A stretch of 64,000 bases of DNA from Leucoraja ocellata (GCA_036785375.1 JAWMAR010000034.1:1798001-1862000); one strand, 5' to 3'. Shown: positions 1-61,710, counted from the first letter of the stretch. The notes: generated from the sequence alone by a model not told the origin. Translations and numbers: made by a program.

Positions 1-111
1 GATGCTGCCTGTCATGCTGATTTGCTCCAGCATTCTGTGTCCATCTTGAGTGTGAACCAGCAGTTGCATACATCATAAATGGTTATCTTCATCCAGGGGC
101 TGTGTGTATCC

Positions 112-5985: not shown

Positions 5986-6549
5986 ACACTCCCACTCCCT
6001 CAGTCAATGGACACACAGAATAGAATGCAGGGTAATTCAATGCAGGACTTGGGGAGTTGTGCAACACCAATGCATTACACAGATCTTGCAGCTCATAAGC
6101 AAACCAGCAGATCCATATGCAGTTCCGTTCCATATGAAATTCCTCGATAATTAATGGAGCTCTAACAAATTATCTTGCAATTCTCTTTGCCTTCTTGGAA
6201 AAGGTTAACTTCTACTTAACCTTAATTTGCCTTGGAAATTGGCTCAGTCGTAAAAGTTCCAATTTGACCGGGTCTAATCTAAACTTGGTTTATGCCTGAG
6301 TAATTAGAGAGAGATTCAGCACTGAATCCATGTCAACAATCAATCATTTCGCTTTTAGATATTTTAGAGATACAGCGTGGAAAGAGGCCCTTTGGCTCAC
6401 CGACCAGCGATCCCCGCACATTAACACAATCCTACACACACTAGGGACAATTTACATTTATACCAAGCCAACTAACCGACAAACCTGAGGTAGACACAAA
6501 ATGCTGGAGTAACTCAGCGGGACAGGGAGCATCTCTGGGGAGAAGGAAT

Positions 6550-6584
6550 GGGTGACGTTTCAGGTCGAGACCCTTCTTCAGACT
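6550..6584 (-). ncRNA. Minimal type I hammerhead ribozyme motif (GUC site) in the PLE terminal repeat
   Basis: Minus strand: AGT-CTGAAGA-A-GGGT CTCG ACCT-GAA-ACGT-C-ACCC. Confidence 0.8.
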
Positions 6585-6690
6585 GATGTCAGGGGAGTGG
6601 GCTGTACAGAGATAAAATGTAGTCGGAGACGGTAAAACTGGTGGGAAAACTGGGAAGAGGGAGGGGATGGAGAGAGAGAGAAAGCAAGAG

Positions 6691-7017
6691 CTACTTGAAG
6701 TTAGAGAAATCAATGTTCATACCGCTGGGGTGTAAACTACCCACGCAAAATATGAGGTGCTGTTCCTCCAATTTGCGCTGGGCCTCACTCTGACAGTGGA
6801 GGAGGCCCAGGGCAGAAAAGTCAGATTGGGAATGTGAGGAGGAGTTAAAGTGCTGAGCAACGGGGAGATCAGGTAAATTGAGGCAGACTGAGCAGAGGTG
6901 TTCAGTGCAACGATCGCCGAGCCTGCGCTTGGTCCCGTCGATATACAGGAGTCGACAGCTGGAACAGCGGATACAGGAGATGAGATTGGAGGAGGTGCAA
7001 GTGAACCTCTGCCTCAC
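6691..7017 (-). pseudogene. Penelope-like GIY-YIG endonuclease domain, decayed
   Basis: FTCTSSNLISCIRCSSCRLLYIDGTKRRLGDRCTEHL...PVAQHFN...H...RKLEEQHLIFCVGSLHPSGMN; the YIG motif is mutated to YID. Confidence 0.88.
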
Positions 7018-8283
7018 CTGACAAGACTGTAGGGGTCCTTGGACGGAGGGAAAGGGACAGGTGTTGCATCTCCTGCAGTTGCAGGGAAAAGTACCTGGGG
7101 GAGGGGGTGGTTTGGGTGGGAAGGGACGAGTTGACCAGGGAGTTGCGGAGGGAATGGTCTCTGCAGATAGCGGAAAGAGGTGGAGATGGGAAGATGTGGC
7201 CAGTAGTGGGATCCCGTTGGAGGTGGCGAAAATGTCGGAGGATTATGTGCTGTATGCGATGGCTGATGGGGTGGAAGGTGAGGACATGGGGGACTCTTTC
7301 CTTGTTATGAATGTGGGGAGGGGGAGGGGGAGCTAGAGCGGAGCTGCAGTATATCCAGCAGACTCTAGTGAGATCCTAATTTATAATGGAAGAGGGGAAC
7401 CCCTGTTCTCTAAAGAATGAGGTCATCTCCGATGACATGGTAGGAAAATCCTTATCCTGGGCACAGATGTAGCGTAGACGGGGGAATTGGGAGTAGGGGA
7501 TAAAGTATTTACAGGAAGCAGGATGGGAAGAAGTGTATTCTAGTTAACTATGGGAGTCAGTGGGTTTGTAATAGATGCCAGTCGATAGTCTGTCTCCTGT
7601 GATGGAGACGGTGAGATCTTGAAACTGTAGGAAGATGTCGGAGATTCAGATTCAACTTTAATTGTCATTGTCAGTGTACAGTACAGAGACAACGAAATGC
7701 AGTAGTCCAAGTGAATTTGAGTGCAGGATGGAAATTAGTCGTGAAGATGACGTCAGTGGGGTCTACTTTGAAGAAGTTCTCCTCATCTTTTCGACGAGAG
7801 TTCAGATTCCTACACAACCTACAAACTTATACATCTTTGGAGTTTTTTCACAAGGCTTTCTATAAGCCTTCTTTATAAACCTGCCCCAAAGACATTTGCA
7901 GAAATGCAGAGAATGTCTTGCTGTCCTGATTAAGAACAGCGAACATATGTCAATATGGCCTAGATAAAGAGCTGAGACAGCCAAAAATAAGCCATGTAGA
8001 TGGGCCTACTCCCACTCCTAACTCCTATGTTTGTATGCACCCACACAAATGCAAGGTGGACTTCAAAAAAAGAATTCAGGGAAGGATAATAAATACTAGC
8101 CCTCATTCGGCATAATAATTCGAAGAAAAAGATGCATTTAGTTTGTTTCCTCCTGACAAGTGTCTATAGACATTACCCAGCCAAGAGCACTACATAAATG
8201 CTAATTGTGCTTCAGCAGTGTACTCTCTGCGATTGCCAAATTCAGTCAGGCCAGATCCAAAGCATCCATGTTTTTTGCTTGAT

Positions 8284-8908: not shown

Positions 8909-9254
8909 GGAGTGAATCGTTATGTGCCCTGAGTTCATTATACTCTATTTTTCCAGAAAATATGATGACTTTCCATGTGCTCTGCTAGCAGTGATATTGC
9001 AGTGAATAATTTCCAATGGTGTTTCAGAGGGCACCCAGTCTAAGCATCAATCATTCTTTACTCCAGTGTAATGTGATTCAAGACAGTGTAATGGTTTCTT
9101 TATTATTGTCCCCGGGGATATGGTTAATTGTTCATCCTGCCGCCACCGCTGTGATATTGTCCTCCAACTCGAACAGTCAGTGGATTTCAGGATTAAAGTT
9201 TAACAATGATGATAGCTCAGGGTTTACCGGGGCCACTGAGAATGAAGGAGCGAT

Positions 9255-10084
9255 CTGGGGTATAATGTGGATAAATGTGAGGTTATCCATTTTGGTGGCA
9301 AAAACGGGAAAGTAGACTATTATCTAAATGGTGGCCGATTGGGAAAGGGGGAGATGCAGCGAGACCTGGGTGTCATGGTACACCAGTCATTGAAGGTAGG
9401 CATGCAGGTGCAGCAGGCAGTAAAGAAAGCGAATGGTATGTTAGCTTTCATTGCAAAAGGATTTGAGTATAGGAGCAGGGAGGTTCTACTGCAGTTGTAC
9501 AGGGTCTTGGTGAGACCACACCTGGAGTATTGCGTACAGTTTTGGTCTCCAAATCTGAGGAAGGACATTATTGCCATAGAGGGAGTGCAGAGACAGTTCA
9601 CCAGACTGATTCCTGGGATGTCAGGACTGTCTTATGAAGAAAGACTGGATAGACTTGGTTTATACTCTAGAATTTAGGAGATTGAGAGGGGATCTTATAG
9701 AAACTTACAAAATTCTTAAGGGGTTGGACAGGCTAGATGCAGGAAGATTGTTCCCGATGTTAGGGAAGTCCAGGACAAGGGGTCACAGCTTAAGGATAAG
9801 GGGGAAATCCTTTAAAACCGAGATGAGAAGAACTTTTTTCACACAGAGAGTGGTGAATCTCTGGAACTCTGCCACAGAGGGTAGTTGAGGCCAGTTCATT
9901 GGCTATATTTAAGAGGGAGTTAGATGTGGCCCTTGTGGCTAAGGGGATCAGGGGGTATGGAGAGAAGGCAGGTACGGGATACTGAGTTGGATGATCAGCC
10001 ATGATCATATTGAATGGCGGTGCAGGCTCGAAGGGCCGAATGGCCTACTCCTGCACCTAATTTCTATGTTTCTATGTTTCTATG
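9255..10084 (+). mobile_element. Young HER1-like CR1 LINE, 5'-truncated, with (TTTCTATG)n tail
   Basis: Peptide DKCEVIHFG...RDLGVMVHQSLKV...LVRPHLEYCVQFWSP...EERLDRLGLYS, frameshifting into EFRRLRGDLIETYKILKG; 3' UTR and octamer tail present. Confidence 0.95.
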
Positions 10085-10532: not shown

Positions 10533-10935
10533 GCAGCCACAGTGGCGCAGAGATAGAGATGCTGCCTTACAGCGCCAGAGACTCGGGTTCGATCCTGCCT
10601 ATGGGCGCTTGTCTGTAAGGAGTTTGTGCCTTCTCCCCTAGACCTGCGTGGGTTTTCTCCGGGATCTCCAGTTTCCTCCCACACTCCGAAGACATACAGG
10701 TTGGTAGGTTGTTTAAGATGGAACTGCAGATGTTGGAAAATCGAAGGTAGACAAAAATGCTCGAGAAACTCAGCGGGTGCAGCAGCATCTATGGAGCGAA
10801 GGAAATAGGCAAAGTTTTGGTCCGAAACATTGCCTATTTCCTTCGTTCCATAGATGCTGCTGTACCCGCTGAGTTTCTCCAGCATTTTTGTCTACCTCAG
10901 GTTGGTAGGTTAATTGGCTTGGTATAATTGCTAAG
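10533..10935 (+). mobile_element. HE1-like V-SINE interrupted by a PLE fold-back insert
   Basis: Head CACAGTGGCGCAG and B-box GGTTCGATCC; the SINE resumes after 10897. Confidence 0.88.
10711..10897. mobile_element. Fold-back (palindromic) Penelope terminal-repeat mini-element with 14 bp target duplication
   Basis: Arms about 10745-10819 and 10822-10897 are near-perfect inverted repeats; CAGGTTGGTAGGTT at 10697-10710 and 10898-10911. Confidence 0.9.
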
Positions 10936-11360: not shown

Positions 11361-11553
11361 CCATTGTTGGCTCCACCTTTCCTTGGCCATCGATGCCGGC
11401 TCCTGATTTGTTCTTTACCTTTTCATGCCTCTAGTGTCCCTCTCTCCTGACTCCCAGTCTGAAGAAGAGTCTTGCCCCAAAATATTATCTATTCCTTTTC
11501 TCCAGAGATGTTGCCTGACCCGCCGAGCTACTCCAGCATTTTGTGTCCATCTG
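11361..11553 (+). mobile_element. PLE terminal-repeat element with degenerate hammerhead
   Basis: CAGTCTGAAGAAGAGTCTTGCCCCAAAA...CTCCAGCATTTTGTGTCCATCT; same subtype as 57029-57290. Confidence 0.75.
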
Positions 11554-14786: not shown

Positions 14787-14885
14787 TGGGTCTGAAGAAG
14801 GGTCCAGCCCTGTAACGACACATATGCATGTTCTCCAGAGATGCTGCCTGGCCCGCTGAGTTACTCGAGCACTTTGTGTCCTTTT
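14787..14885 (+). mobile_element. PLE terminal-repeat monomer, degenerate hammerhead
   Basis: GGGTCTGAAGAAGGGTCCAGCCC...GATGCTGCCTGGCCCGCTGAGTTACTC. Confidence 0.75.
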
Positions 14886-16662: not shown

Positions 16663-16891
16663 AGGTAGACAAAAGTGCTGGAGAAACTCAGCGGGTGCAG
16701 CAGCATCTATGGAGCGAAGGAGATAGGCAATGTTTCGGTCCGAAACTCTTCTTCAGACTATGTTTAAGAAGGAACTGCAGATGCTGGAAAATCGAAGGTT
16801 GACAAAATTGCTGGAGAAACTCAGCGGGTGCAGCAGCATCTATGGAGCGAAGGAAATGGGCAACGTTTCTGGCGGAAACCCTTCCTCAGAT
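16663..16891 (-). mobile_element. Tandem dimer of the PLE hammerhead repeat (133 bp period)
   Basis: Two head-to-tail copies; hammerhead motifs at about 16726-16758 and 16859-16891. Confidence 0.88.
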
Positions 16892-17311: not shown

Positions 17312-17411
17312 AAGATGGACACAAAATGCAGAAGTACATTAACTCAGCGGGACAGGCAGCATCTCTGGAGAGAAGGAATGGGTGACGTCTCGGGTCACGA
17401 CCCTTCTTCAG
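17312..17411 (-). mobile_element. PLE hammerhead monomer with 13 bp direct flanking repeat
   Basis: TTCAGTGCAAGTG at 17299-17311 and 17407-17419; hammerhead core GAAA mutated to GAGA. Confidence 0.85.
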
Positions 17412-18433: not shown

Positions 18434-18660
18434 TGCCACTGTCCCACTTAGGAAACCTGAACGGAAACCCCTGGAGACTTTGCGCCCCACCCAAGCTTTT
18501 GCGTGCAGTTATCGGAGGTTTTTGTCAGTCTCCCTACCTGCTTCCACTACCTGCAACCTCCGGCAACCACCTGCAACCTCCGGGAACCGCACGGAAACCT
18601 TGGGTGGGGCGCAAAGTCTCCAGAGGTTTCCGTTCAGGTTTCCTAAGTGGGACAGGGGCA
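18434..18660. mobile_element. PIF/Harbinger-like MITE with long TIRs and TTA target duplication
   Basis: TGCCACTGTCCCACTTAGGAAACCTGAACGGAAACC... pairs with ...GGTTTCCGTTCAGGTTTCCTAAGTGGGACAGGGGCA; TTA at 18431-18433 and 18661-18663. Confidence 0.88.
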
Positions 18661-24162: not shown

Positions 24163-24893
24163 TCATAAGTTCATAAGTTCTAGGAGCAGAATTAGGCCAT
24201 TCGGCCCATCAAGTCTACTCTGCCATTCAATCATGGCTGATCGATCTTTCCCGCTCAACCCCAGTCTCCTGCCTTCGCCCCATAACCGCTGACATTCATA
24301 CTAATCAAGAAGCCGTTAATCTCCATCTTAGACATATCAATTGTCGTGGCTACCACAGACTTTTCTGTGGCAATGAATTCCACAGATTCACCACCCTCTG
24401 ACTAAAGAAATTCCTTTTTATCTCCTTTCTAAAGGTACGTCCTTTTATTCTGAAGCTATGGTCTCTGGTCTTAGACTCCCACTAGTGAAAACATCATCTC
24501 CACATTCACTCTAGCCAGGCCTTCCACTATTCGGTAAGTTTCAGTGAACACACCCCTCATCCTTCTAAACTCCAGTGAGTACTGGCCCAGTGCCGTCAAA
24601 CGTTCATCATATGTTAACCCCATCGTGCCTGGGATCATTCTCGTAAACTTCCTCTGAACCCTCTCCAATGTCATTACATCCATCCTCAGATATGGGGCCC
24701 AAAACTGCTCACAATACTCCAAATGCAGTCTGACCAGTGCCTTATAAAGCCTCAGCATTACATCCTGTTTTTGTATTCTAGCCCTCTAGAAATAAATGCT
24801 AGCATTGCATTTGTCTCCTTAACATCGATTTGACTTGAAACTTAACTTTTTGAGAATCCTGTACCAGCACTCCCAAGTCCCTTTGTACCTCTG
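24163..24893 (-). mobile_element. CR1 LINE 3' fragment
   Basis: MLRLYKALVRLHLEYCEQFWAPYLR...LEFRRMRG; (CATAAGTT)n tail. Confidence 0.92.
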
Positions 24894-25290: not shown

Positions 25291-25576
25291 GGGTCTGAAG
25301 AAGGGTCCTGACCCGAAACATCACGTGATGTATTCAAGAGAGAGTTAGATAGATGTATTCAAGAGAGAGTTAGATATAGCTCTTAGGGTTAACTGAATCA
25401 AGGGATATGACGAGAAAGCAGGAACAGGGTACTGATTGTGGATGATCAGCCATAATCATATTGAATGGCGGTACTGGCTCCTGCACCTGTTTTCTATGTT
25501 GCTAAGTCACCCATCCTTTCTCTCCAGAGATGCTGCCTGACCTGTTGAGGTGTGCCAGCACTTTGTGTCTATCTTG
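25291..25576 (+). mobile_element. PLE hammerhead monomer split by a CR1 3' end (25325-25505)
   Basis: GGGTCTGAAGAAGGGTCCTGACCCGAAACATCAC, then CR1, then GTCACCCATCC...GTGTCTATCTT. Confidence 0.85.
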
Positions 25577-31489: not shown

Positions 31490-32505
31490 CCAATTTCAAG
31501 GAGCTATGGACTTGCAGCCTTTGTTCCCTCTGTGTCTCTCCTCCAAAGGGTCCTGCTATTTACTGTTTACTTTCCCCTTGCATTTGACCTCCCAAAATGC
31601 AACGTCACACACTTGTCCAGGTTAAACTCCTTTTGCCAAATTTGCAACTGATCTATATCCTGCTGTATTATTTGCAATAAAAAAAACATACAGTGCTGGA
31701 AAAATTCAACGGAGGCAGCATCTGTGGAGGGAATGAATAGACGACGTTTCGGGTCAGGCCACCTTCTTCAGACTCAAGACTCAAGTCTGAAGAAAGGTCC
31801 CGACCTGAAAAGTCACCTATTCATTCCCTCTAGAAATGCTGCTTGACCTGCTGAGTTCCTCCAGCACTTTGTGTTTTGCTCAAGATTCCAGTATATGCAA
31901 TTCCATGTATCTCATTTGCCAACTCTCAACGCCATCAATATTTGTGTTGTTTGCAAACCTACTGATCAGACGACCTACATTTTCATCCAAATAAATGTAG
32001 CCTGGTCCAGAAGATTGTGAGATGGGATTCATATGTACAAGGTCCCAGTACTGATTTTTCAACAGACTACTGGTCACAGACTTCCAGTCAGAAAAAGATT
32101 CTACTAACATAATTGTATGCCTTCTACGGCCTAGCAAATTGTGCCTCCAATTTACCAGTGCACTGTGGATCCCATCTCATAATCTTCTGGATCAGACTAC
32201 CACAAGTGACTTTGTCAAATGCTTCACTAAAGTTCATGTAAAGTCTACTGTCCTACCATCACCATCAATCATCTTGACCACTTCCATCAAAGTTGTGAGA
32301 CATGACCTTCCCTGCTTAAAATTATGCTGACTATCCCTGAGAAGTCCACAATTTTCCAAATCCCAGTAAATCCCTTCACAAACATGTGTTTCCAATAATT
32401 TCCCTACCCTGATGTAAGGCTCATTGGCCTATGATTGCTAGGTTTGTCCCTGTTGCCCTTCTTAAACAATGAACAACATTTGCTATTCTCCAGTCTTCTC
32501 GAATG
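31490..32505 (-). mobile_element. Old CR1 RT-region fragment interrupted by a PLE inverted pair
   Basis: Minus peptides SFSDWKSVTS and DENVGRLISRFANNT (FADD remnant); CTTTGTCAAATGCTT encodes KAFDK on the minus strand. Confidence 0.75.
31688..31905. mobile_element. Inverted pair of PLE hammerhead repeats
   Basis: Minus motif 31743-31774 and plus motif 31784-31817, back to back. Confidence 0.85.
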
Positions 32506-32647: not shown

Positions 32648-32752
32648 AGAACTGCAGATGCTGGTTTACAAAAAAAAGGCACAAAATGTTGGAGTAACTC
32701 AACAGGTCAGGCAACTTCCCTGGAGTTTCTGGTTGGGACCCATCTTCAGATG
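32648..32752 (-). mobile_element. Degenerate PLE terminal repeat
   Basis: GAACTGCAGATGCTGGTTTAC...GGAGTAACTCA...CCCATCTTCAGA. Confidence 0.7.
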
Positions 32753-33140: not shown

Positions 33141-35349
33141 AAGGATGGTTGGACCAGTAGATATGAAATAATGTTTAATTGGGTCATCTACAAAAGTTTT
33201 TAAGTTTAAAAGAGTGGCAGAAGTTATCTAGGGCAGTGAAGAGGTTACTGTCATAGTATCCCTCCCTATGCTGCTGGCAAGTAGTCAGTATTTCATGCCT
33301 ACAGCAAGAACGCTCTATTAAATAAATGCCTACAGTGTGACGACAACATTTTTCTTACTGTTGCATTTCTACAGAGACAATAGAACAATACACATTATTG
33401 TCAGAACATAGAGAGCAGGAGTTACACAATAATTCCAATCTAATACTGAGGACTGTCAGAGATTCAGGTGATTGATTGTTAAAGTAGATCTGCTTCAGCA
33501 GTGTCATCAGGAAGGAAGTCTACTCTCAAATAATCAGACCTGCCAGGATTATATAGAATCACACCTCATTTCCATTTAATATCCCATTGTCACAAACATT
33601 GGGACAGAGTCACAGGAGGAGCAATCCAGTCAGAAATAGGTTTAAAGAAGGGATGGTGAGCAGAATTTCTCCAATTCTTTAAGATAATGGTAAAGAGGTA
33701 GGTGTGTTGTCCACGCATTCAAATATTTAAACATTCAGTTTAGTATTAGTACAAAACCGATGGCTGCCGAGTAAAGTCTCGTTCTGTCGTCTGCTGCACC
33801 CCATCACCTGACCACCCAGATCGGCGTTGATTATTCGGCCCAGATCACGCCAGCTGACCCGAGAGTTCGAGCTCGACAAACAACGGTTCGAGACCAAAGT
33901 GGCTTGGCCACAAGAGATAACTTCTTAAAAATAAAACGGGAGAGGGGGCAGGTCTTTCCACCCAGAGGGAGGTGGGAATAAAAGACATTTGGAGAAGTAC
34001 ATGGCAAATGGGACGAGCTCAGTCAGGCAGCTTGTATAGTGTGGGTGTGTTTGACATTGTATTTATGACCAGCTTTATGGCCTAGTGACTCTTCTGCTGG
34101 GGTATGTCGAGCTTTGAATGAATATTGATTAACCATGATCTTACTGAATGATAGAACAGGTCATAAAACAGAATGACCTTCTCCCACCCCAATCTCATTT
34201 TTTCCCCTGAAATGTATATGCACATAGGACAGACATTACTGGCAATGCCAGGATATAAGATCCATCCTGAATTGCCCTGAGCTGAGGAGCCAAATCTGAG
34301 GCAGGAATATTGACAGGCGGCAAGTCGAGCAGAGGCCAGACATCTCAGTCATTCCAGGTGAGCCTTTGCACCAAACCGAGGATTTCATGGTCACCTATCA
34401 AGATCACGTGGCTAACCTGGACTTGGAGCCCCGAGAGCCCACAGAATCCCAACTTCCCCAACATATGGAGCGCACCACCTCCCAAACCAACGCAAGGCAC
34501 CTCCTGCCTCATCCATGGAAGAGACTGCAGATGCTTGAATCCGAAACCAAAAACTGAAGAACTTTTCTGACCCAAAATGTGGCCTATTCATTTGCCTCCA
34601 CAAATGCTGCCCGACCTGTTGAGTTCCTCCAGCATGTTGATTTCTTTTCGCTCTTCTGTGGAAGAGTCCGCAGCAGCCGCAGTGCTCTCATCAGCCATCT
34701 CAGAACCCATTAACCCTGAGTGGAAGTGAGTCCTCCTCAATCCTGAGGGATGTCTGGGAAGATGGATACTGATTTAATTAATTACTTGTATTGTGACAAT
34801 GGGATTCAGAAAGCCGTCCGGATCAAAGGTCTCATATTCTGCCTGCATAGCTTAACCACTGAACTACAATAACCATTGAAGCTCTTATTTTAACCCTGAC
34901 CTCCCAGTTTTACATAGGGTGGTTGATGTGTAGGGCAGTGAATACTTGTTTGCTAACACAGCAAGGAGGTGTGATTCAATGCAGTTTATATCCTTAGCTA
35001 CTCTAACTCCTGGACTTGTGGAAGTGTTGAGAGGACACTTGTACTAATGAGATCATTAAGCATTGGTTGCAGGCCTTATTAAAACAATTGCCGGCAATTA
35101 CAGCACTTCCAGTGGGCAAATGACAGTAACCAAAGCAGATCATTACAGACTAGGAGTCGTGCAGCCCAAATATCGCAGGGTAAAAGTCGTGTATTTCTTC
35201 TAATTCATTCACGAGTTGTGGGTAACTATGGCAAGGCCAGACAGAGATCAGCCACAGATATTCCAGACGAGGTCAGGTGGGCAGATTTCCCTTGCTGAGG
35301 AACATGGATTTTTGGGACAATTTCTGTGAAATTGGAGCAACATTTGGGA

Positions 35350-36205: not shown

Positions 36206-36997
36206 CCAAGTTAATTGGCTGCTGTAAGTTGCCCATATTGTAGATGTACCCTTTCCTCCAGTCTCAGACTAGAGGGCATAGTTTTAAGTTGAGAGGGGAA
36301 AAGTTTAAAGGAGGTGTGTGGGGCAAATGTTTTACATGGAGAGAGGTGGGTGCCTGGAACATGCTGCCGGGGGTGGTGGTAGAGGCAGACACAATAGTGG
36401 CATTGAAGAGGGAGTTGGATAGACTCATGGATATGCAGGGAATGGAGAGATATGGTGGACAATTCATTTAACTTGGTATGTTCGACGTGGCCATTTGAAT
36501 CGAAGGGCGGCACTGTCCTACATTTTATATTTTGGAGGAGAATCTCGGGAGTTGATGGAAATGTGAGGACAAAAAAGTGCGATTAATGAAGAATTAAATG
36601 GGTGGTTGATGGTAGGCACGGACTCCATCGGCTGAAGGTTCTATATCCATGCGATATGAGTTTGTGCTAGCTCTTTCCCCCCAAATTTATTTTATAATGT
36701 AAAGCATTGTTGTGATGAGATTTGAACTTACGACCTGGGACCAATGATCCAAGTGTCTTGATGCCAGTACAGACACATAGTCTGCTTCGGCTGGAGATAG
36801 GCATAATGGAGTGACTCAGGCAACACCACTGGATGGAAGGAATGCGTGATGTTTTGGATCGAGACCCTTTTGCAGACATCTGGATATGAAATGTGATCTC
36901 ATGGCCCAGGGAGATAGTCCTCCCAAGATCCTATCAACTATTTAACTCCAGCCAATACCATAAAATAAAGATTACCTTATTATTTGGAAAAGAAAAA

Positions 36998-37145: not shown

Positions 37146-37157
37146 TTAATTAAATGA

Positions 37158-37335
37158 ACTGCTGGAGAAACTCAGTGGGTCAGGCAGCATCTGTGGAGGA
37201 AATGGACAGGCAACAGACTGATCAGTCTGAAGAAGGGTCCCAACCCAAAATTTTCACCTGATCATTCCCTCCACAGATGCTGCCCGACCCGTTTAGTTCC
37301 TCCAGCAGTTTGATTTTTGCTCAAGATCCTAGCAT
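37158..37335. mobile_element. Fold-back PLE terminal repeat
   Basis: ACTGCTGGAG..GGGTCAGGCAGCATCTGTGGAGG pairs with CCTCCACAGATGCTGCCCGACCC..CTCCAGCAGT; CTGAAGAAGGG lies inside. Confidence 0.8.
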
Positions 37336-38697: not shown

Positions 38698-38981
38698 TAA
38701 GCTAATACACAACCTGCACAGGTAATTCCCAGCCTGCGAGCCAAGCTGGGATTTAAATAAAAGTAGGAGAAACTGAGGTCTTCCATCTGCTGGTCTCTGC
38801 CAGCATTTTCTATTTCTCTTTCGGGTTTTCTGCATCTGCAGTTCATTTTTTCAGGCATTGATTGACTCCCTGGAAATATATTTATGTTAAATCTTAAGTC
38901 ATAGTATGGAAACAGGCCCTTCGGCCCAACTCATCCATGCCAATCAACTTGCCCTATCTGAACCCATATCCCCATAGATCT

Positions 38982-39085
38982 GAAGATCGGTCTGAAGAAG
39001 GGTTTCGGCCCGAAACGTTGCCTATTTCCTTCGCTTCATAGATGCTGCTGCACCCGCTGAGTTTCTCCAGCTTTTTTGTGTAACC
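38982..39085 (+). mobile_element. Young PLE hammerhead monomer with 13 bp target duplication, inside a minus-strand CR1 end (about 38897-39347)
   Basis: TCCCCATAGATCT at 38969-38981 and 39086-39098. Confidence 0.9.
38989..39022 (+). ncRNA. Minimal type I hammerhead ribozyme motif, intact core (GUU site)
   Basis: GGT-CTGAAGA-A-GGGT TTCG GCCC-GAA-ACGT-T-GCC; stem I GGU/GCC; stem II capped by UUCG. Confidence 0.85.
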
Positions 39086-40162
39086 TCCCCATAGATCTTT
39101 CCTACCCATGTACTTGTCCAAATGTCTTCTAAATGCTGTTACAGTGCCTGCCTCAACTACCATCCAGTTTTTCCCTTCCCCCACGACAATCAGTCGTAAA
39201 AAGCATCCCAAACCTAAACGTCAGCTGCCCACTTTCTCCAGAGATGCCTCCTGACCCGCTGAGTAACTCCAGTATTTTGGGTCCATCCACCACCCCTTGC
39301 AGCTATTTCTATAATCCCACCACCCTCTGAGTGAAAAAGTTGCCTCAGGAAAATCTCTCACCATCCCTTTCAAAAACCCAGGCCTCGGAATCATTTTGGA
39401 AGAGCAGGAACTTGAAAAGTGTAACTCTGCTACTGACAAGTCAGACCTCGGAGAGACTTTGGTCCTGGATTCTACCTCTCTAATCTCAGTTGCCGATCCA
39501 TTAAACAATATTTTTATTCATCATTTCCATGCAACAAGTATACCTAAGTGCCCAAAATCTAATAAATTATAAATACAGATTAAAACTTCCTTGACTAAAC
39601 CCACTCGAGCGTTCATACAAAGCCACATAAACGTTCACACGATATACCTTGCGGTTGCATTATTTATTAGGAACTGAAACATTTATGTACAGACAAGAGA
39701 AACAGTGGTTTCAGGAGAATATACCATTTTAATGCTATTTAGGTGTATTTGTCCCTGGGAGTTTTTTGGATCCCAAACAATCTGCAATGCCTGGAGCCAC
39801 AAGTTCACAGAACCACACTCCTAAGGCCAAGTGTTGTAAATGCACTGACTTTCTTCACAATTGCACTCAGTATCGAGCCTCTATATCGACAAAGACAAAC
39901 AAAGACCTTGCAGGAATATGGCTATTTAACTTTCCTTTTTGCTCCCCACATACAGAGATAGGGAAGAAATGGCCCATTGCAGTCCAGCCCACAAATAAAT
40001 AATGACCCCATCGATTCATATGTGACTGAGATAGCATTGTGGTTAAGTCACCGGACTAGCAGGCAAAATTGTAGATCATTGATCCACAGACAACAGGTCA
40101 AATCTCCCCGCAATAGCTGGGGAGTTTAAATGTGAGCAATTAAATCAATTTGTACCTTTGAA

Positions 40163-41790
40163 GCAACACGGTGGTGCAGCTGATAGAGCTGCTGCCTCAC
40201 AGCGCCAGAGACCCAGGTTTGATCCTGACCTCGGGTGTTGTCTATGTGGAGTTTACCACAGGGGTTGGTGTTGGGCCAGTTACTTTTCACATTGTATATT
40301 AATGATTTGGGTGATGAAATGTATGGATTTGTGGTCATTATTGTGGATGATGCGAGGATAGGCTGGTAATGTTGAGGAAGCAGGGAGTCTGCGGATGGCC
40401 GGACAGGTTGGCAGAATGCGCAAAGAATTGGCAAATGGAATAGAGCGCTGCAAAATGTACGGTCATGCACTTTGGGAGAAGGAATAAAGGCGTAGACTGT
40501 TTTTTAAATGAGGAGAGGATTCTCTGTCTGTGGAATTCTCTGCCTGAGAGGGTGGTGGAGGCAGGGTCTCTAGATGCTTTCAAGAGAGCTAGATAGGGCT
40601 CTTAAAAATAGCAGAGTCAGGGGATATGGGGCGAAGGCAAGAACGAGGTGCAGGAGTAGGTCATTCGGCCCTTCAATCTGTTGTTCTTGGACTTGAAAAG
40701 AGGAGAAAGGTAACAGGGTAATAGAAGATTTAAAACAGAGGTAGCATGTTACAAAGGTTCTCTATTCATTGTGTGATGTCTCAACCACGTACATTACAAT
40801 GATATGGGGAGAAGGCAGCAACGGGGTACTGATTGGGGATGTTCAGCCATGATCACATTGAATGGTTCGCTGGCTCGAAGGGCCGAATGGCCTGCTCCTG
40901 CACTTATTGTCTATTGTCTATTGGTTCAGAAACAGGAGGTGCCAAGGGAATTGGGAGTACTGGTGCAGGGTTTCCTAAAGGTTGATTTGCAGGTTAAATC
41001 GGCAGTGAAGATGGCAAATGCAATGATAGCATTAATTTCAAGAGGACTAGAATATAAAAGCAAGAATGTAATACTGAGGCTTTACAAGGCACTGCTCAGG
41101 CCAAATTTGGAACATTGCAAGCAGTTTAGACCCGGTACCTGAGGAAGGGTGTGTTGGCATTGAAGAGGGTCCAGGGGAGATTTACGAGAATGATCCTGAG
41201 GATGATTGGGTTAATGTATGAGGAGCCTTTGATGGCGATGGGCCTGTTCTCACTGAAGTTTAGAAGGATGGGGGTCTCATTGAAACCTACTGAATAATGA
41301 AAGGTCTAGAATGGATGTGGAGAGGATGTTTCCAGTAGTGAGAGAAAGCCTCCGATCTGAGGGCAGAGGCTCAAAATTAAAGGATGTACCTTTAGAATGG
41401 AGATGAGGAGGAATTTCTTTAGCCAGAGGCTGGGGAATCTGTGGAATTCATTGCCACAGACAGCAGTGGAGGCCAAGTCATTGGGTGTTTGTAAAGCAGA
41501 GATTGACATATTCTGGGTTAGTAAGGGTGTCGAGGGTTACAGGGAAAAAGCAGAAGAATGGGGATGAAAGGGAGAAATAGATCAGCCGTGATCAATTGGC
41601 AGAGCAGATCGATGGGCCAAATGGCCTCATTCTGCTCTTACATCTGATGATCCTTGCACATTCTCCCTGTGACCATGTGGGTTTCCTCCGGGTGCTCGGG
41701 TTCCCTCTCACGTCACAAAGATAGGCGGGTTTGTAGATTAATTGGCCTCTGTAAAATTTCCCCAATGGATGGAAAGTGGGATAAGTTGTG
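40163..41790 (+). mobile_element. HE1-like SINE (40163-40255, 41655-41790) split by composite CR1 fragments (40256-41648)
   Basis: CR1 peptides PQGLVLGQLLFTLYINDL and ANAMIALISRGLEYKSKNVILRLYKALLRPNLEHC; the SINE V-domain resumes at TTGCACATTCTCCC. Confidence 0.85.
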
Positions 41791-44819: not shown

Positions 44820-44986
44820 AGATAGACACAAAAAGCTGGAGTACCTCAGCGGGGCAGGCAGCATCTCTGGAGAGAAGGAATGGGTGATGTTTTGGCTTGA
44901 AACCCTTCTACCCGTCCCGCTGAGTTACTTCAGTTTTTTGTGTCTATCTTCGGTTTTAACCAGCATCTGCGGTTCCTTCCTACACA
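44820..44986. mobile_element. Fold-back PLE terminal repeat
   Basis: AGATAGACACAAAAAGCTGGAGTA.CTCAGCGGG pairs with CCCGCTGAGTTACTTCAGTTTTTTGTGTCTATCT; extension to TTCCTACACA. Confidence 0.85.
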
Positions 44987-45413
44987 TATATTTGTAGATA
45001 ATATTAACCGGATAGAGAACAATATTTATTTGATCCTGAGCCCTGAAAGACCACAGTTGGTTTAAAGAATCAATGTGTTCAATCAAAAATCCTGCCACCA
45101 CCTCACAGACCGGACAGCTTGAGTGGAGAAAAAAAGTTAACATTTAAGGTGCTGACCTTTCACCTGTTCTGATGAAAAATTATCGACCTGTTCCCTGCTT
45201 GACAGGTGTGCTCTGACATACTGAGTGTTTCCAGCAATTTTTTATTTTTATTTCAGATTTCCAGCATCAACCAGATTTCACTTTTGAATCATTTGCTGTC
45301 AGATTCCGTTTGACGATTTTCACAAGCACTCACCTTGGTACAGTGAAGCTCCACTATATTCTGCTAGCCACACCGTATAAATGTACTGTGATACACGTTA
45401 TAGTTATCGAGTC

Positions 45414-45731: not shown

Positions 45732-46230
45732 TCGGAGAGTCGAACAACTCTTTTTTTAAGGATATAAACAGCTACTCGTTACTCCAGCTGAAAGTGGAGA
45801 TGATTGGGTCATTCGCCTGCTAATCATTAATTGGTCAGCATGGACAATGTGGGCCGAGTGGCCTGTTTCCATGTTGTATGACTATCTATGACTATAATGT
45901 ACCTCAGGTACTGGAATCTACAGCTAAATGCAAACTGTTCGAGGAACTCAGCTGGCCAGGCAGCATCTAGTTGGGGTAAGGATGCTGTTTGATCTGCTGA
46001 GTTCTTCCAGCATTCACACAGAGGGTGGTCGGCACATAGAACCAGCAGTCTCCGGAAAGTAGTAGAGGCAGGTACTATAACAACATTTAAAAGATATTTG
46101 CACAGGTACATGAATTGGAAAGATTTAGAAGGATATAGGCCAAACACAGGCATGCAAGACTGGTGTAGCTGGAAAAGTGGTGGGGGTGTGACACCTGGTT
46201 AGTCATAGTGGGAGAAACAAGGTACTGTGG

Positions 46231-46339
46231 AGGTAGACAAACATGCTGAAGAAACTCAGCGGGTGAGGCAGCATCTATGGAGCGAAGGAAATAAGCAATG
46301 ATTCGGGACGAAACCCTTCTTCAGGCGGATGCTTCAGAC
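46231..46339 (-). mobile_element. PLE hammerhead monomer nested in another PLE repeat
   Basis: AGGTAGACAAAC...ACCCTTCTTCAG flanked by GGTACTG(T/C)GG repeats. Confidence 0.75.
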
Positions 46340-46989: not shown

Positions 46990-47082
46990 TGAAGAAGGGT
47001 CGCGACCCAAAACGTCACACATTGCTTCTACCCAGAGTTGCTGCCTGTCCCTCTGAGTTACTCCAGCATTTTGTGTCTATCT
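46990..47082 (+). mobile_element. PLE hammerhead monomer (GAAA decayed to AAAA)
   Basis: TGAAGAAGGGTCGCGACCCAAAACGTCAC...GTGTCTATCTT. Confidence 0.8.
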
Positions 47083-51351: not shown

Positions 51352-51518
51352 TAGACACAAAATGTGGGAGTAACTCAGTGGGTCAGGCAGCATCTCTGGT
51401 GAAAATAAATAAGTGACATTTTGAGTCGGGTCCGGTCTCCAGGGATGCTGTCTGACCCGCTGAGTTACTCCAGCATTTTGAGTCTATCTTAGGTTTAAAC
51501 CAACATCTGCAGTTCTTG
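51352..51518. mobile_element. Fold-back PLE terminal repeat
   Basis: TAGACACAAAATG..GGAGTAACTCAG pairs with CTGAGTTACTCCAGCATTTTGAGTCTA. Confidence 0.8.
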
Positions 51519-52562: not shown

Positions 52563-53051
52563 TAAAGAGACTATAGATGCTGGAATCTTGACCAAAATAT
52601 CAAGGTGCTGATGGAACTCAGCGGGCCAGACAGCATCTGGGGAGGGAGTGGGCAGACGACGTTTCAGATCGAGACCCTGCTTCAGACAGATTGGGGGTGG
52701 AGGGTGGAGGGGGAAGGTGTCAGAGGATGGGAAGGGGTTTGTGGAAGTAACAAAGGGTTGTGGATTGTGGAATCTGACAAGAATAAGGTGATGAGTGAAA
52801 ATGGGAAAGGGAGGAATACTGGACAGATGGAAACAGGATGGGTTGGGAAAGCAAGTGTATAAATTGTGAGCACGAAAGATAGATGGAGTTTGCGGGAGAA
52901 TGGGAAGAAACTGAGTTGCAGGAGGATGGGGAGAAGTTGTTTTTGGAAAGAAGGTGTGTGTGTGTGTGAGGAGTTGGCTGGATAGGAAGGAGAAGGAAAG
53001 AGACAGAGAAGGTGCAGAGTACCACAAATTGGACAATTCAATGTTCATGTC

Positions 53052-53428
53052 GTTTAAGAGGGAACTGCAGATGCTGGAGAATCGAAGGTTACACAAAAAT
53101 GCTGGAGAAACTCAGCGGGTGCAGCAGCATCTATGGAGCGAAGGAAATAGGCAACGTTTCGGGCCGAAACCCTTCTTCAGACTGATCGGGGGTGGGGGCG
53201 GGGGTGGGTGGGGACAAGAAAGGGAAAAGGAGGAGGAGCCCGAAGGCTAGGGGATGGGAGGAGACAGCAGGGGGGCTGAGGAAGGGGAGGAGACAGCAAG
53301 GACTAACAAAATTGGGAGAATTCGATGTTCATGCCCCCGGGATGCAGACTCCCCAAACGGAATATGAGGTGCTGTTCCTCCAATTTCCGGTGCTGCTCGC
53401 TGTGGCCATGGAGGAGACCCAGGACAGA
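53052..53428 (-). mobile_element. Young Penelope-like 3' fragment with 9 bp target duplication
   Basis: SVLGLLHGHSEQHRKLEEQHLIFRLGSLHPGGMNIEFSQFC then stop; GTTCATGTC at 53043-53051 and 53429-53437. Confidence 0.9.
53150..53183 (-). ncRNA. Minimal type I hammerhead ribozyme motif, intact core
   Basis: Minus strand: AGT-CTGAAGA-A-GGGT TTCG GCCC-GAA-ACGT-T-GCC. Confidence 0.85.
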
Positions 53429-53545
53429 GTTCATGTCATTGGGTTGCAGCCAATGCATGTGGAATATGAGATGATATTCCTCTAGCTTACATTTGGCTTC
53501 ACCCTGGCAGTGGGAGAGGCAGAGAACAGGCAGGTTGAGTGTGGG

Positions 53546-53644
53546 GAGGAACTGCAGATGCTGGTTTACACCGAAGATAGACACAAAATGCTGGAGTAAC
53601 TGAGAAACCCACTGAGTTACTCCAGCATTTTGTGTCTATCTGCA
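53546..53644. mobile_element. Short fold-back PLE repeat with 12 bp target duplication
   Basis: GTTGAGTGTGGG at 53534-53545 and 53645-53656; AGATAGACACAAAATGCTGGAGTAACT and its inverse. Confidence 0.85.
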
Positions 53645-53711
53645 GTTGAGTGTGGGAACGGGGAGGGGATTTAAAATGGCTTGAAATTGGAAGCTCAAGA
53701 TACCCAAGAAT

Positions 53712-53903
53712 GACACAAAAAACTGTAGTAACTCAGCGGGACAGGCAGCATCTCTGGAGGGAAGGAATGGGTGGCATTTCGGGTCCGGACCCATCTTCAG
53801 TCACCCATTCCTTCTCTCCAGAGATGCTGCCTGTCCTGCTGAGTTACTCCAGCTTTTTCAGTATCTTCGGTTTAAGCCAGAATCTGCAGTTTCTTCTTAC
53901 GCA
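53712..53903. mobile_element. Fold-back PLE terminal repeat
   Basis: Inverted arms around a degenerate hammerhead at about 53768-53800. Confidence 0.82.
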
Positions 53904-56869: not shown

Positions 56870-57390
56870 AACAAATAGGGTGAACGCATAGTTGTTTACC
56901 CAGGAGAGGGAGGGGAATCAAGAGCCAGCGGTCTAACGTGAGAGAGGAAAGAGTTAACAGGGACCTGAGGGGCAACTTTTTCCACACACAAGGTGATGGT
57001 TGTATGGAATGAGCTGCCAGTGGAGGTATGTGTGTAGGAAGGAACTGTGGATGGTGGTTTACACCGAAGATAGACACAAGAAGCTGGAGTAACTCTGGGG
57101 GTCAGGCAGCATCTCTGGAGAAAAGGAACAGGTGATGTTTTGGGACAAGACCCTTCCTCAGACTGAGAGTCAGGGGAGAGGGAAACGAGAGAGATAGGAG
57201 TTGCATTGAACAAATGAATGAACGATATGCAAAAAGCAACGAAGATCCAGGAAAAGTGGAGCCCACAATGGTCCATTGTTGGCTGTGGGGAAGGTAGTTG
57301 AGGCAGGGGCTATAGCAGTATGTAAAGAACACTTGGACAGGTACATGGATAGGAAAGGTTTAGAGGGATAGGGGCCAAACGCAGGCAAAT
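56870..57390 (+). mobile_element. CR1 3' fragment split by a PLE terminal-repeat element (57029-57290, minus)
   Basis: CR1 GAGGTA / AGGTAGTTGAGG flanks; insert reads TGTGTAGGAAGGAAC...ACCCTTCCTCAGACTGAGAG. Confidence 0.85.
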
Positions 57391-58199: not shown

Positions 58200-59031
58200 A
58201 CACAGAAAACCCATTGGAGGCAGAGAACTGGAGCTCATTAAAGTGTGTTTTCAGAACACTCCAACCCCATTCTGTAATCTGGACAGAGCGGAATACAATC
58301 ATCATCTTTTCATTTGTAACAGTGAGGCACAGTCAGATTGATGGGATCTGAAATTTTCAATTAGTAATGCCCTCAAAACAGCTTTCAACTGATGTATGCC
58401 TTGACAGAGTTAAACCTGATTGAAATGGAGTGGTGGAATAAATGTCAGCCTGCAGTGCATTACAAGGCTGACAGAAAATGGATGTCAGACAACAAAAACC
58501 GGGGAGTGGGTGATTGGAAGCAACGCTCCTCTCCCATTAACAAGTCGGTGGCTCCACTGAAGGAAAGGTGGACGCGTTTACATGCTGCCTTCCCTCTCAC
58601 GTTAGATCAAGGCCCCATCATCTCCCTCGGCTGCAAAACACAAACGTACTGGAGTTACTCAGCGGGTCAGGCAGCATCTGCAGAAGGGAAATGGACACAT
58701 GGAGGGTCCCAACCTGAAACATCGTCTGTCCATTCCCTCAACCTGACCTGCTCTCTTGCCCCATATCTCTCCAAACCTTTCCGACCCTTTTATGTGAAAT
58801 AGTAGTAATTGTATCCACTTGCGGATGTGTTAGGAGCTACAATGGACATGTACGAAGATCAAAGAACATGTTATAACACAAAGAAGGCCATTCTGCCCAT
58901 TGTTTGCTGATCCCAACAGTAAGTAGTTGTGAGCACACAGGCATAAATTGACAGCAGGGTCAAAAAAGTTACATTTCCTTTGAAGATCTTTTTTTTTCCA
59001 TTTGCAATTAACCCAGATGCATACATACAAT

Positions 59032-59160
59032 AGTCTGAAGAAGGGTCTTGACCCAAAACGTCACCCATTCCTTCTCTCCAGAGATGCTGCCTGTCCCGCT
59101 GAGTTACTCCAGCGTTTTGTGTCTATTTTCGGTTTAAACCAGCACCTGCAGTCCCTTCCT
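59032..59160 (+). mobile_element. PLE hammerhead monomer with tail extension
   Basis: AGTCTGAAGAAGGGTCTTGACCCAAAACGTCACCC...CTGCAGTCCCTTCCT. Confidence 0.85.
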
Positions 59161-61601: not shown

Positions 61602-61710
61602 TTAGACACAAAATGCTGGGGTAACTGCGCGGGTCAGGCAACATCTTTGCCTGAGTTACTCCAGCACTTTGTGTTTTTCTTTGGTAGACCAACATCTGCA
61701 GTTCCTTGTG
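61602..61710. mobile_element. Fold-back PLE repeat lacking the hammerhead
   Basis: GACACAAAATGCTGGGGTAACT pairs with AGTTACTCCAGCACTTTGTGT. Confidence 0.75.

Follow-up and report, generated by a model that had tools for sequence, protein, structure and literature searches.

The short hammerhead-bearing unit that recurs throughout the window (the whole stretch of DNA analysed, 64 kb in length) is the terminal repeat, or pLTR, of a young, autonomous, endonuclease-bearing Penelope-like element (PLE) whose protein motifs make Neptune its most likely clade. The initial annotation of this DNA had read the unit as a Penelope-like terminal repeat carrying a minimal hammerhead, and that reading was borne out. 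The explanation that we favor as a whole, and regard as probable, is that the unit is the pLTR of an autonomous PLE, likely of the Neptune clade, and that its short copies are cDNAs of this element that ended early or folded back on themselves.

Positions on the unit are counted from C3 of CUGAAGA (0, window 38992), which puts the predicted cut between +27 and +28. In the copy on which the initial annotation centered (the focal copy), rechecked coordinates confirmed the hammerhead core: CTGAAGA (38992-38998) is followed by an extra A (38999), stem II (39000-39003 paired with 39008-39011, with a TTCG loop between), GAAA (39012-39015) and CG-T-T (39016-39019), and the cut is predicted between 39019 and 39020. 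The 13-bp direct repeat reported around this copy, enclosing about 100 bp, is also real. Elsewhere in the genome sample, copies of the host repeat carry the target site at 38969 single and uninterrupted, so the 13-bp repeat is a true target duplication; a deletion in the left flank of the window gives an apparent offset of +11 in place of -13. The three bases at the 5' junction probably arose by slippage on microhomology between the target end and the element. The focal copy is 96% identical to a natural young copy linked to an open reading frame (ORF). Its 3' hairpin, in which 93.5% of cells are paired among 18 copies and two-sided changes are absent, is a candidate part of the structure at which the reverse transcriptase (RT) would bind or initiate. 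The features of the window are collected in Table 1.

Table 1. Copies of the PLE terminal unit and related features in the window (window positions; a dot marks inverted pairs)
Feature	Position	Strand	Remark
Left copy of 13-bp target-site duplication	38969..38981	+	within older host repeat
Three extra bases, 5' junction	38982..38984	+	
Short copy of PLE terminal unit	38985..39086	+	-7 to +94
Minimal type I hammerhead	38989..39022	+	stem II 39000-39011, palindromic CG, without loop III, stem I 2-3 bp
Conserved 3' hairpin	39056..39071	+	directly upstream of first 3' terminus
Right copy of 13-bp target-site duplication	39086..39098	+	
3' half of unit	1..41	+	at window edge
Older 5'-truncated PLE copy	6487..7745	-	end of RT region, Cys linker, GIY-YIG end (stop 6691), 3' UTR, unit 6587-6491
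Head-to-head inverted pair	10708..10898	.	pivot is stem II palindrome, CUGANGA half lost
Decayed unit	11455..11547	+	pyrimidine-rich sequence upstream
Decayed short unit	14789..14879	+	
Two short copies, direct tandem	16666..16890	-	unit and tail, then unit
Short unit	17318..17411	-	12-bp duplication
Unit in two pieces	25292..25571	+	25292-25324 and 25504-25571
Head-to-head inverted pair	31686..31874	.	older units
Head-to-head inverted pair	37157..37311	.	
Head-to-head inverted pair	44823..44946	.	
Inverted pair of 3' halves	45932..46014	.	
Short unit	46234..46328	-	
Decayed short unit	46990..47079	+	
Head-to-head inverted pair	51352..51486	.	
Old unit	52602..52690	-	after pyrimidine-rich UTR of older PLE end
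Young 5'-truncated PLE copy	53048..53429	-	endonuclease C-terminus (stop 53303), pyrimidine-rich 3' UTR, unit 53186-53090, tail
Two adjacent inverted pairs	53578..53862	.	53578-53638 and 53713-53862
Unit	57071..57165	-	pyrimidine-rich UTR upstream, tail downstream
Inverted pair, partial units	58638..58739	.	
Short unit with tail	59030..59125	+	G12 mutated
Inverted pair of 3' halves	61603..61674	.	
Further decayed copies	32680-32750, 34554-34638, 36807-36878, 39190-39281, 45187-45241		

A profile built from five window copies gave 41 matches at 29 sites of the window, 34 of them at E<1e-4 and 23 near full length, and no match in the reversed window used as control. The earlier estimate of about 25 copies was therefore fair or slightly low, but many of the items counted are not separate copies: they pair up as the arms of a single head-to-head inverted insertion. 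The unit also lies, as the initial annotation had it, directly after the ends of GIY-YIG-like frames at 6691 and 53303. The young copy that includes the latter end is nested within an older PLE end and has a 9-bp duplication at its flanks, and the unit in two pieces was probably split by an insertion. The suggested Rfam check turned out otherwise: no hammerhead family matched the window up to E=10, and the matches were microRNA-like models on inverted repeats, every one below its gathering score, most of which are accounted for by the head-to-head pairs. Pfam gave no match on five window frames. The top sub-threshold Rfam match falls on a long imperfect inverted repeat at 18434-18660 that resembles a miniature inverted-repeat element and is unrelated to the hammerhead unit. 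Three other fragments of the window (9246-9677, 24471-24785 and 40777-41142) we take to resemble the C-terminal RT region of CR1-type LINEs; Pfam gave no match on two of them. A preference of the element for its own sequence is possible, given that the 53048-53429 copy lies in the endonuclease end of an older PLE (to 53635) and another, at locus L164, lies in PLE coding sequence.

The link between the unit and an autonomous element was seen at several levels. Of the 30 best genome matches to the copy at 53080-53200, most extend 65 to more than 1500 bases upstream, through a pyrimidine-rich UTR to a GIY-YIG-like frame; the upstream bases contained in this query favored long copies. Frames in longer stretches of the genome combine the YIDD motif of RTs with a CX4CxxC linker and a GIY-YIG-like endonuclease end. 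Pfam matches on the element frame were weak, both below cut-off (GIY-YIG, E=0.004; RVT_1, E=0.06). The element protein has 1928 homologues, which carry RVT_1, and the named homologues of highest identity (62-72%) are shark and ray proteins. A query from the N-terminal part of the RT gave at least 150 genome matches; among the matches listed, most show 99% identity and many lie in frames of more than 1000 codons, repeatedly 1233 from stop to stop. On two contigs (C8 and C95) the element is repeated in tandem with a spacing of 3946 bp, which is its period. The order at the C8 junction is ORF stop, a pyrimidine-rich UTR of ~115 nt, hammerhead, 3' hairpin, tail, ~35 nt and the ATG of the next ORF, the first of that frame, 164 nt after C3. 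In the random sample 21 of 27 endonuclease ends have a unit within the following 300 bp. Five of six full-frame copies are preceded by UTR and unit; the sixth locus did not map. The element thus has the single ORF with RT and C-terminal GIY-YIG, the tandem pLTRs, the tail and the inverted 5' copies of an endonuclease-bearing PLE. It is the linker that points to Neptune, since CX4CxxC matches the CX2-5CxxC between RT and endonuclease described for that clade, a feature common to Nematis too (PMC8557442).

Some further properties of the element were noted along the way. The N-terminal half of the 1233-codon frame (L141:410-2299) consists of a conserved-looking first 170 residues and then a stretch of ~330 residues in which proline, glycine and serine abound, and the whole protein is much longer than most homologues listed, among which lengths up to 1070 were considered. 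A pyrimidine run ending in AG at L141:425-448, three bases before the first ATG, looks like the acceptor of a 5' UTR intron as in Penelope; no splice joint supporting it was present among the joints listed from RNA of related species. At L061:905-6430, three 5'-truncated and nearly identical PLE copies are clustered in tandem and inverted arrangement, and a 227-bp inverted fragment separates two of them.

The ribozyme core has been kept in the lineages of this family. All five large subfamily consensuses contain CUGAAGA, the extra A, a 4-bp stem II, GAAA, CG and UH, and with them the CUGANGA, GAAA and UH motifs, the extra base, the G10.1-C11.1 pair and the palindromic 15.2-16.2 of minimal type I hammerheads. 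Loop II varies among subfamilies, and the stems show only one-sided compatible changes. Across 18 natural copies 85.3% of the cells of stems I and II are paired, a value that 163 of 500 shuffles also reached; slid-pairing controls were well below it, at 28-55%. The short stem I described earlier holds for 2 bp in the usual sequence and in the masters, but pairing extends to the third position in no more than 3 of 18 aligned copies. A one-base change gives the focal copy its 3-bp GGT/GCC stem, and in the window this copy alone passes a strict descriptor. Neither for the monomer nor for the co-folded dimer is the hammerhead form the minimum-energy fold. Related minimal hammerheads cleave weakly as dimers (PMC4209133), and the minimal hammerhead of an anole PLE cleaves only with the element's protein (PMC11167929). 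Self-cleavage of the present ribozyme is plausible; it would need a dimer or help from a protein, and the ends of copies would not be set by it.

The abundance of the unit was estimated from 77 stretches of 10 kb (770 kb), taken at arbitrary places on the larger contigs and unweighted by length. They hold 402 matches, 197 of which are full units, with no match in the reversed control. Extrapolation gives ~0.88 million full units per genome (Poisson range 0.76-1.01 million, clustering ignored), and full units by themselves account for ~2.5% of the DNA sampled. These counts, together with the shark and ray homologues of the protein, bear out the SINE-like density in an elasmobranch-type genome that had been proposed. 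Every core base is kept in 60 of 215 near-full units; core, stem II, palindrome and 2-bp stem I are all intact in 22 (~100,000 per genome), and a 3-bp stem I is present in 6 (~27,000 per genome). The youngest subfamily holds 15 of the 22 intact-looking units. Mismatch to the subfamily consensus is 26% at CpG positions (G12 included), 10% at other non-core positions and 6% at non-CpG core positions, a pattern that fits neutral decay of copies from core-keeping masters; base composition and profile bias may also contribute to the lower rate in the core. In a comparison of haplotypes, 9 units of the random sample were matched.

For an unbiased view of the 5' ends of young copies, the query was limited to the 65 bases after the cut site and gave 40 exact matches; 38 of them form the set used for 5' ends and 34 of these the set used for 3' ends, with 2 left out. 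The 3' ends of the 34 fall at +92 to +95 (25 copies) and at +128/129 (7 copies), with 2 more at +101/103 by alignment overrun; these two fixed sites, ~37 nt apart, correspond to the known PLE tail. No copy in the random sample runs into the downstream main body, and genomic copies form a series from ~65 nt to full length. The 5' ends are markedly uneven. Twenty-six of the 38 lie between -8 and +12, a zone of 21 nt at the 5' edge of the ribozyme; none lies at +13 to +27 or in the 63 nt from -9 to -71, and 11 lie further upstream, counting as running on 3 of the 34 that align to -72 or -79, near the fetched edge at -82. A single copy, an inverted one, starts at the cleavage site (+28). Cleavage does not define the ends of copies. 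A flat truncation rate is rejected at P ~1e-12 after allowing for the choice of window. The initial annotation had named random 5' truncation of autonomous PLEs as the observation that would count against a distinct family, and the 5' ends do not have that distribution. The young family has the same pattern of 5' ends in the random sample, and among 209 classified units of all subfamilies 144 begin at the hammerhead edge (100 solo and 44 inverted), 54 run into UTR or ORF and 11 are uncertain; false UTR calls were 0 of 150.

Inversion is frequent and directional, with 82 head-to-head and 4 tail-to-tail pairs among 437 matches. Of the short young copies, 12 of 27 are head-to-head inversions, and 4 of these pivot exactly at +10, in the stem II palindrome. 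The other 15 are not inverted; 11 of them start between -5 and 0, and 7 have abutting duplications of at least 7 bp (7-14 bp). Target duplications of their own, claimed for most copies, were confirmed for the focal copy but are not shown for the majority: 14 of 100 solo copies, many of which are old, have a duplication of at least 9 bp, against 1 of 100 in the control. An upstream repeat that stops at the hammerhead edge was found in none of five mapped full-frame elements, in each of which that repeat reaches into the UTR, compared with 26 of 37 terminal units (Fisher p=0.005). This contrast, drawn from five full-frame loci only, suggests that the stop depends on the extent of synthesis and not on sequence alone.

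Short and linked copies do not appear to belong to separate lineages within subfamilies. Each of the five large subfamilies has copies joined to the 3' UTR or endonuclease end as well as short copies, and within the four subfamilies tested the two kinds are intermixed on trees (47-257 of 300 shuffles were as low). On a tree of 198 units the labels are more clustered than in shuffles (39 changes against a mean of 47.6; 0 of 300); the linked share differs among subfamilies, and the UTR library favors two of them. The trees are low in power, since each row holds ~90 nt. Two kinds of tandem array were also observed. Repeats of 66 bp consist of the 3' half of the unit from G12 onward, without CUGANGA and stem II, and occur at L105:6936-7580, L136:8000-8470 and L004:2620-3015 (duplicated in L005) with 96-98% identity. 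The presence of the same junction at three unrelated loci indicates that noncoding derivatives can spread without the catalytic 5' half. Arrays of 34 bp (L136:7013-7252, L157 and L158) extend from stem II through the pyrimidine run that follows the cut, have a normal 3' part at their end, and possibly reflect recurrent template slippage.

RNA was represented by three raw runs of related species and one contig set, aligned at 88% likeness. In this weak test no common start or end of molecules was found on the unit, with both strands covered, and 74-94% of the reads continue into unlike sequence. Libraries of the polyA and single-cell types are ill suited to detecting 5'-OH ends, so these reads have no bearing on cleavage or start sites. 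At L141:271-360, the single-cell reads of two runs (X23 and X24) are about four times more numerous on the minus strand of the unit, and those of the polyA run are balanced; the bias may come from oligo-dT priming on the A-rich antisense strand.

The mechanism that we propose for the short copies builds on a related system. The protein of an anole PLE makes a nick in the target DNA and begins reverse transcription at two internal sites, those that define the tail; it uses uncleaved RNA, with cleavage dispensable (PMC11167929). By the same route, the protein of the present element would make short copies from element RNA. About 70% of new cDNAs would go no further than their first 80-135 nt, when the enzyme is completing the hammerhead, and two palindromes, one across stem II and one at the 5' edge, would let the cDNA end fold back. 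The ended cDNA could then be joined to the target, giving a solo copy with a target duplication, or prime itself, giving a head-to-head pair; palindromes at inverted junctions are known from other PLEs (PMC3846280). Those cDNAs that pass the stop zone would continue into the UTR and ORF, and the short copies would be mostly dead on arrival and then decay.

The sharp 5' boundary, and with it the rejection of a flat hazard, would also be expected if the short copies formed a SINE-like nonautonomous family, an alternative that we consider unlikely. Transcription would start at the 5' edge of the unit (~-3), either on the short copies or as the 5' end of element transcripts, and the PLE enzyme would copy the RNA in trans to its end, so that 100-135 nt would carry both a start site of their own and, at the 3' end, the site of RT initiation. 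Target duplications that abut the start of the unit, the majority of classified units beginning at the hammerhead edge and the dispersal of the 66-bp arrays all agree with it. The tight cluster of non-inverted starts, whose sequence we take to fit an initiator consensus, suggests an RNA 5' end over enzyme fall-off and counts against early termination. There are precedents in the internal promoter of the Penelope pLTR (PMC2377424) and in a rotifer, where pLTRs are enough for mobilization in trans (PMC3846280). On the other hand, no short-only lineage exists among the five large subfamilies, the ends are confined to a 21-nt zone and not to one base, a cap-templated G before the unit is not in excess (5 of 34), and the RNA reads of related species have no common start. 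The anole enzyme needs ~55 nt downstream of its initiation sites (PMC11167929), which short copies lack. Element transcripts that start at the edge predict full-length copies that do so as well, and none of the five does. In its fullest form this alternative would make the unit a self-sufficient minimal retroposon with its own 5'-edge transcription, copied in trans by the PLE, of which there would be ~0.9 million copies and ~100,000 intact-looking cores; we find this doubtful.

Early ending and fold-back of cDNA also has to be set against three explanations in which the short form arises at the level of RNA processing or DNA. The initial annotation had inclined toward a retrozyme-like family, in which short units would be transcribed as multimers, self-cleaved, circularized and reverse transcribed. 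The core kept in all five consensuses accords with that idea, as does the report of tandem pLTR-derived non-LTR retrozymes in one chondrichthyan (bioRxiv 10.64898/2026.07.22.740005), but the copies are not permuted at the cleavage site, where a single start among 38 lies, and on the 3' side they stop at one or other of the two PLE initiation sites. Moreover, stem I has only 2 bp and the monomer misfolds, the tandem arrays found (66 and 34 bp) lack CUGANGA, none has a ribozyme in each unit, and direct neighbors with two complete cores are rare (window 16666-16890 is one example; the 770-kb sample leaves room for rare arrays elsewhere). For these copies the retrozyme reading is largely refuted, and we give it very little weight. 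Splicing is similarly improbable as the origin of the short form. The pyrimidine-rich UTR and the CAG before the core do fit a 3' splice site at which spliced RNAs would lose the UTR, and an intron of D. virilis ends at the 5' side of helix I (PMC4209133), but the ends are spread over 21 nt, several of them 3' of the site, and no GT..AG joint was present among the joints listed from three RNA runs of related species. Target duplications that abut the unit, with no upstream exon, disfavor it further. Deletion or recombination between repeats of longer insertions, which is how solo pLTRs without duplications were read in a rotifer (PMC3846280), would leave pLTRs of variable length that include UTR, as upstream repeats do; here shortness is already seen in near-identical young copies, with abutting duplications on 7 of the 15 non-inverted ones, so that we regard a DNA-level origin as highly unlikely too.

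The scale of the family and its sharp, position-dependent 5' boundary make it worth following. The insertion ends described here bear on the transposition cycle of PLEs and the role of the hammerhead in it: with many near-identical full-frame copies and very many products, the cycle becomes readable from the ends of insertions. They place a testable constraint on it, namely that most reactions end at the 5' edge of the ribozyme only when synthesis has just begun. Head-to-head pairs also put many perfect hairpins of 150-200 nt in host transcripts. If the SINE-like reading were true, the family would represent, in a cartilaginous fish, a class of SINEs that has its promoter in the ribozyme and is mobilized by a PLE, and the sharp 5' boundary would record in the genome where PLE RNA starts or where initiation gives way to elongation.

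Compared with known hammerhead-bearing repeats, the family resembles metazoan non-LTR retrozymes (Cervera and de la Pena 2020, PMC7229834; Li et al. 2026, bioRxiv 10.64898/2026.07.22.740005) in its type I ribozyme, its noncoding nature, its derivation from or relation to pLTRs and its dispersed monomers. Non-LTR retrozymes are described as tandem repeats of 150-450 bp with a ribozyme in each unit and a circular RNA; the present copies, in contrast, are single or inverted pieces of 65-135 bp with minimal cores, bounded by PLE initiation sites. The Sm-alpha repeats of Schistosoma are likewise short, very numerous, retroposed and hammerhead-bearing, but they have a canonical active hammerhead, a Pol III promoter and a tandem organization (PMC6765202), none of which we found here. 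The Poseidon element PAc of Anolis carolinensis (Frangieh et al. 2024, PMC11167929) shares with the present one two 3' termini ~90-130 nt after the hammerhead, which define a tail, and copies that hold an uncleaved ribozyme; no RNA ends were seen at the cut site of PAc. It belongs to another clade, and its ORF starts in stem II, whereas the first ATG of the present element lies beyond the tail. In the parts of its main text covered here, no accumulation of 5' ends at the edge of the ribozyme is described.

The likeness to Neptune PLEs, as far as these are treated in the parts of PMC4209133 and PMC8557442 used here, extends to the single ORF with RT, Cys linker and C-terminal GIY-YIG, the tandem and partial-tandem copies, the inverted 5' copies and the optional tail of 30-40 bp. 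It also includes the minimal hammerhead, in which stem II is preceded by an extra base and the 15.2-16.2 pair is palindromic, and motifs that are mostly dispersed singly. Unlike described Neptune PLEs, the present element has a 1233-codon frame with a long proline-rich N-terminal part. Stem I (2 bp) and stem II (4 bp) are shorter than in Schistosoma (4-5 and 7-8 bp; PMC4209133), and we estimate 60,000-150,000 intact-looking motifs here, against ~4,000 in coelacanth and ~9,000 in Xenopus, counts obtained with different descriptors (PMC4209133). No cartilaginous fish was found in the text covered of that paper or in one supplementary file, and a search of mainly open-access literature found no paper that describes the family, its copy number or the 5'-end pile-up. 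Dispersed minimal hammerheads that occur singly had been reported earlier as "probably related to truncated PLEs" (PMC4209133), and in the sources covered pLTR hammerheads, dispersed single motifs, tails, inverted pLTRs with junction palindromes and chondrichthyan pLTR-derived retrozymes are already in print. The family is mostly an element of the expected kind, ordinary except for its scale and its sharp 5' boundary.
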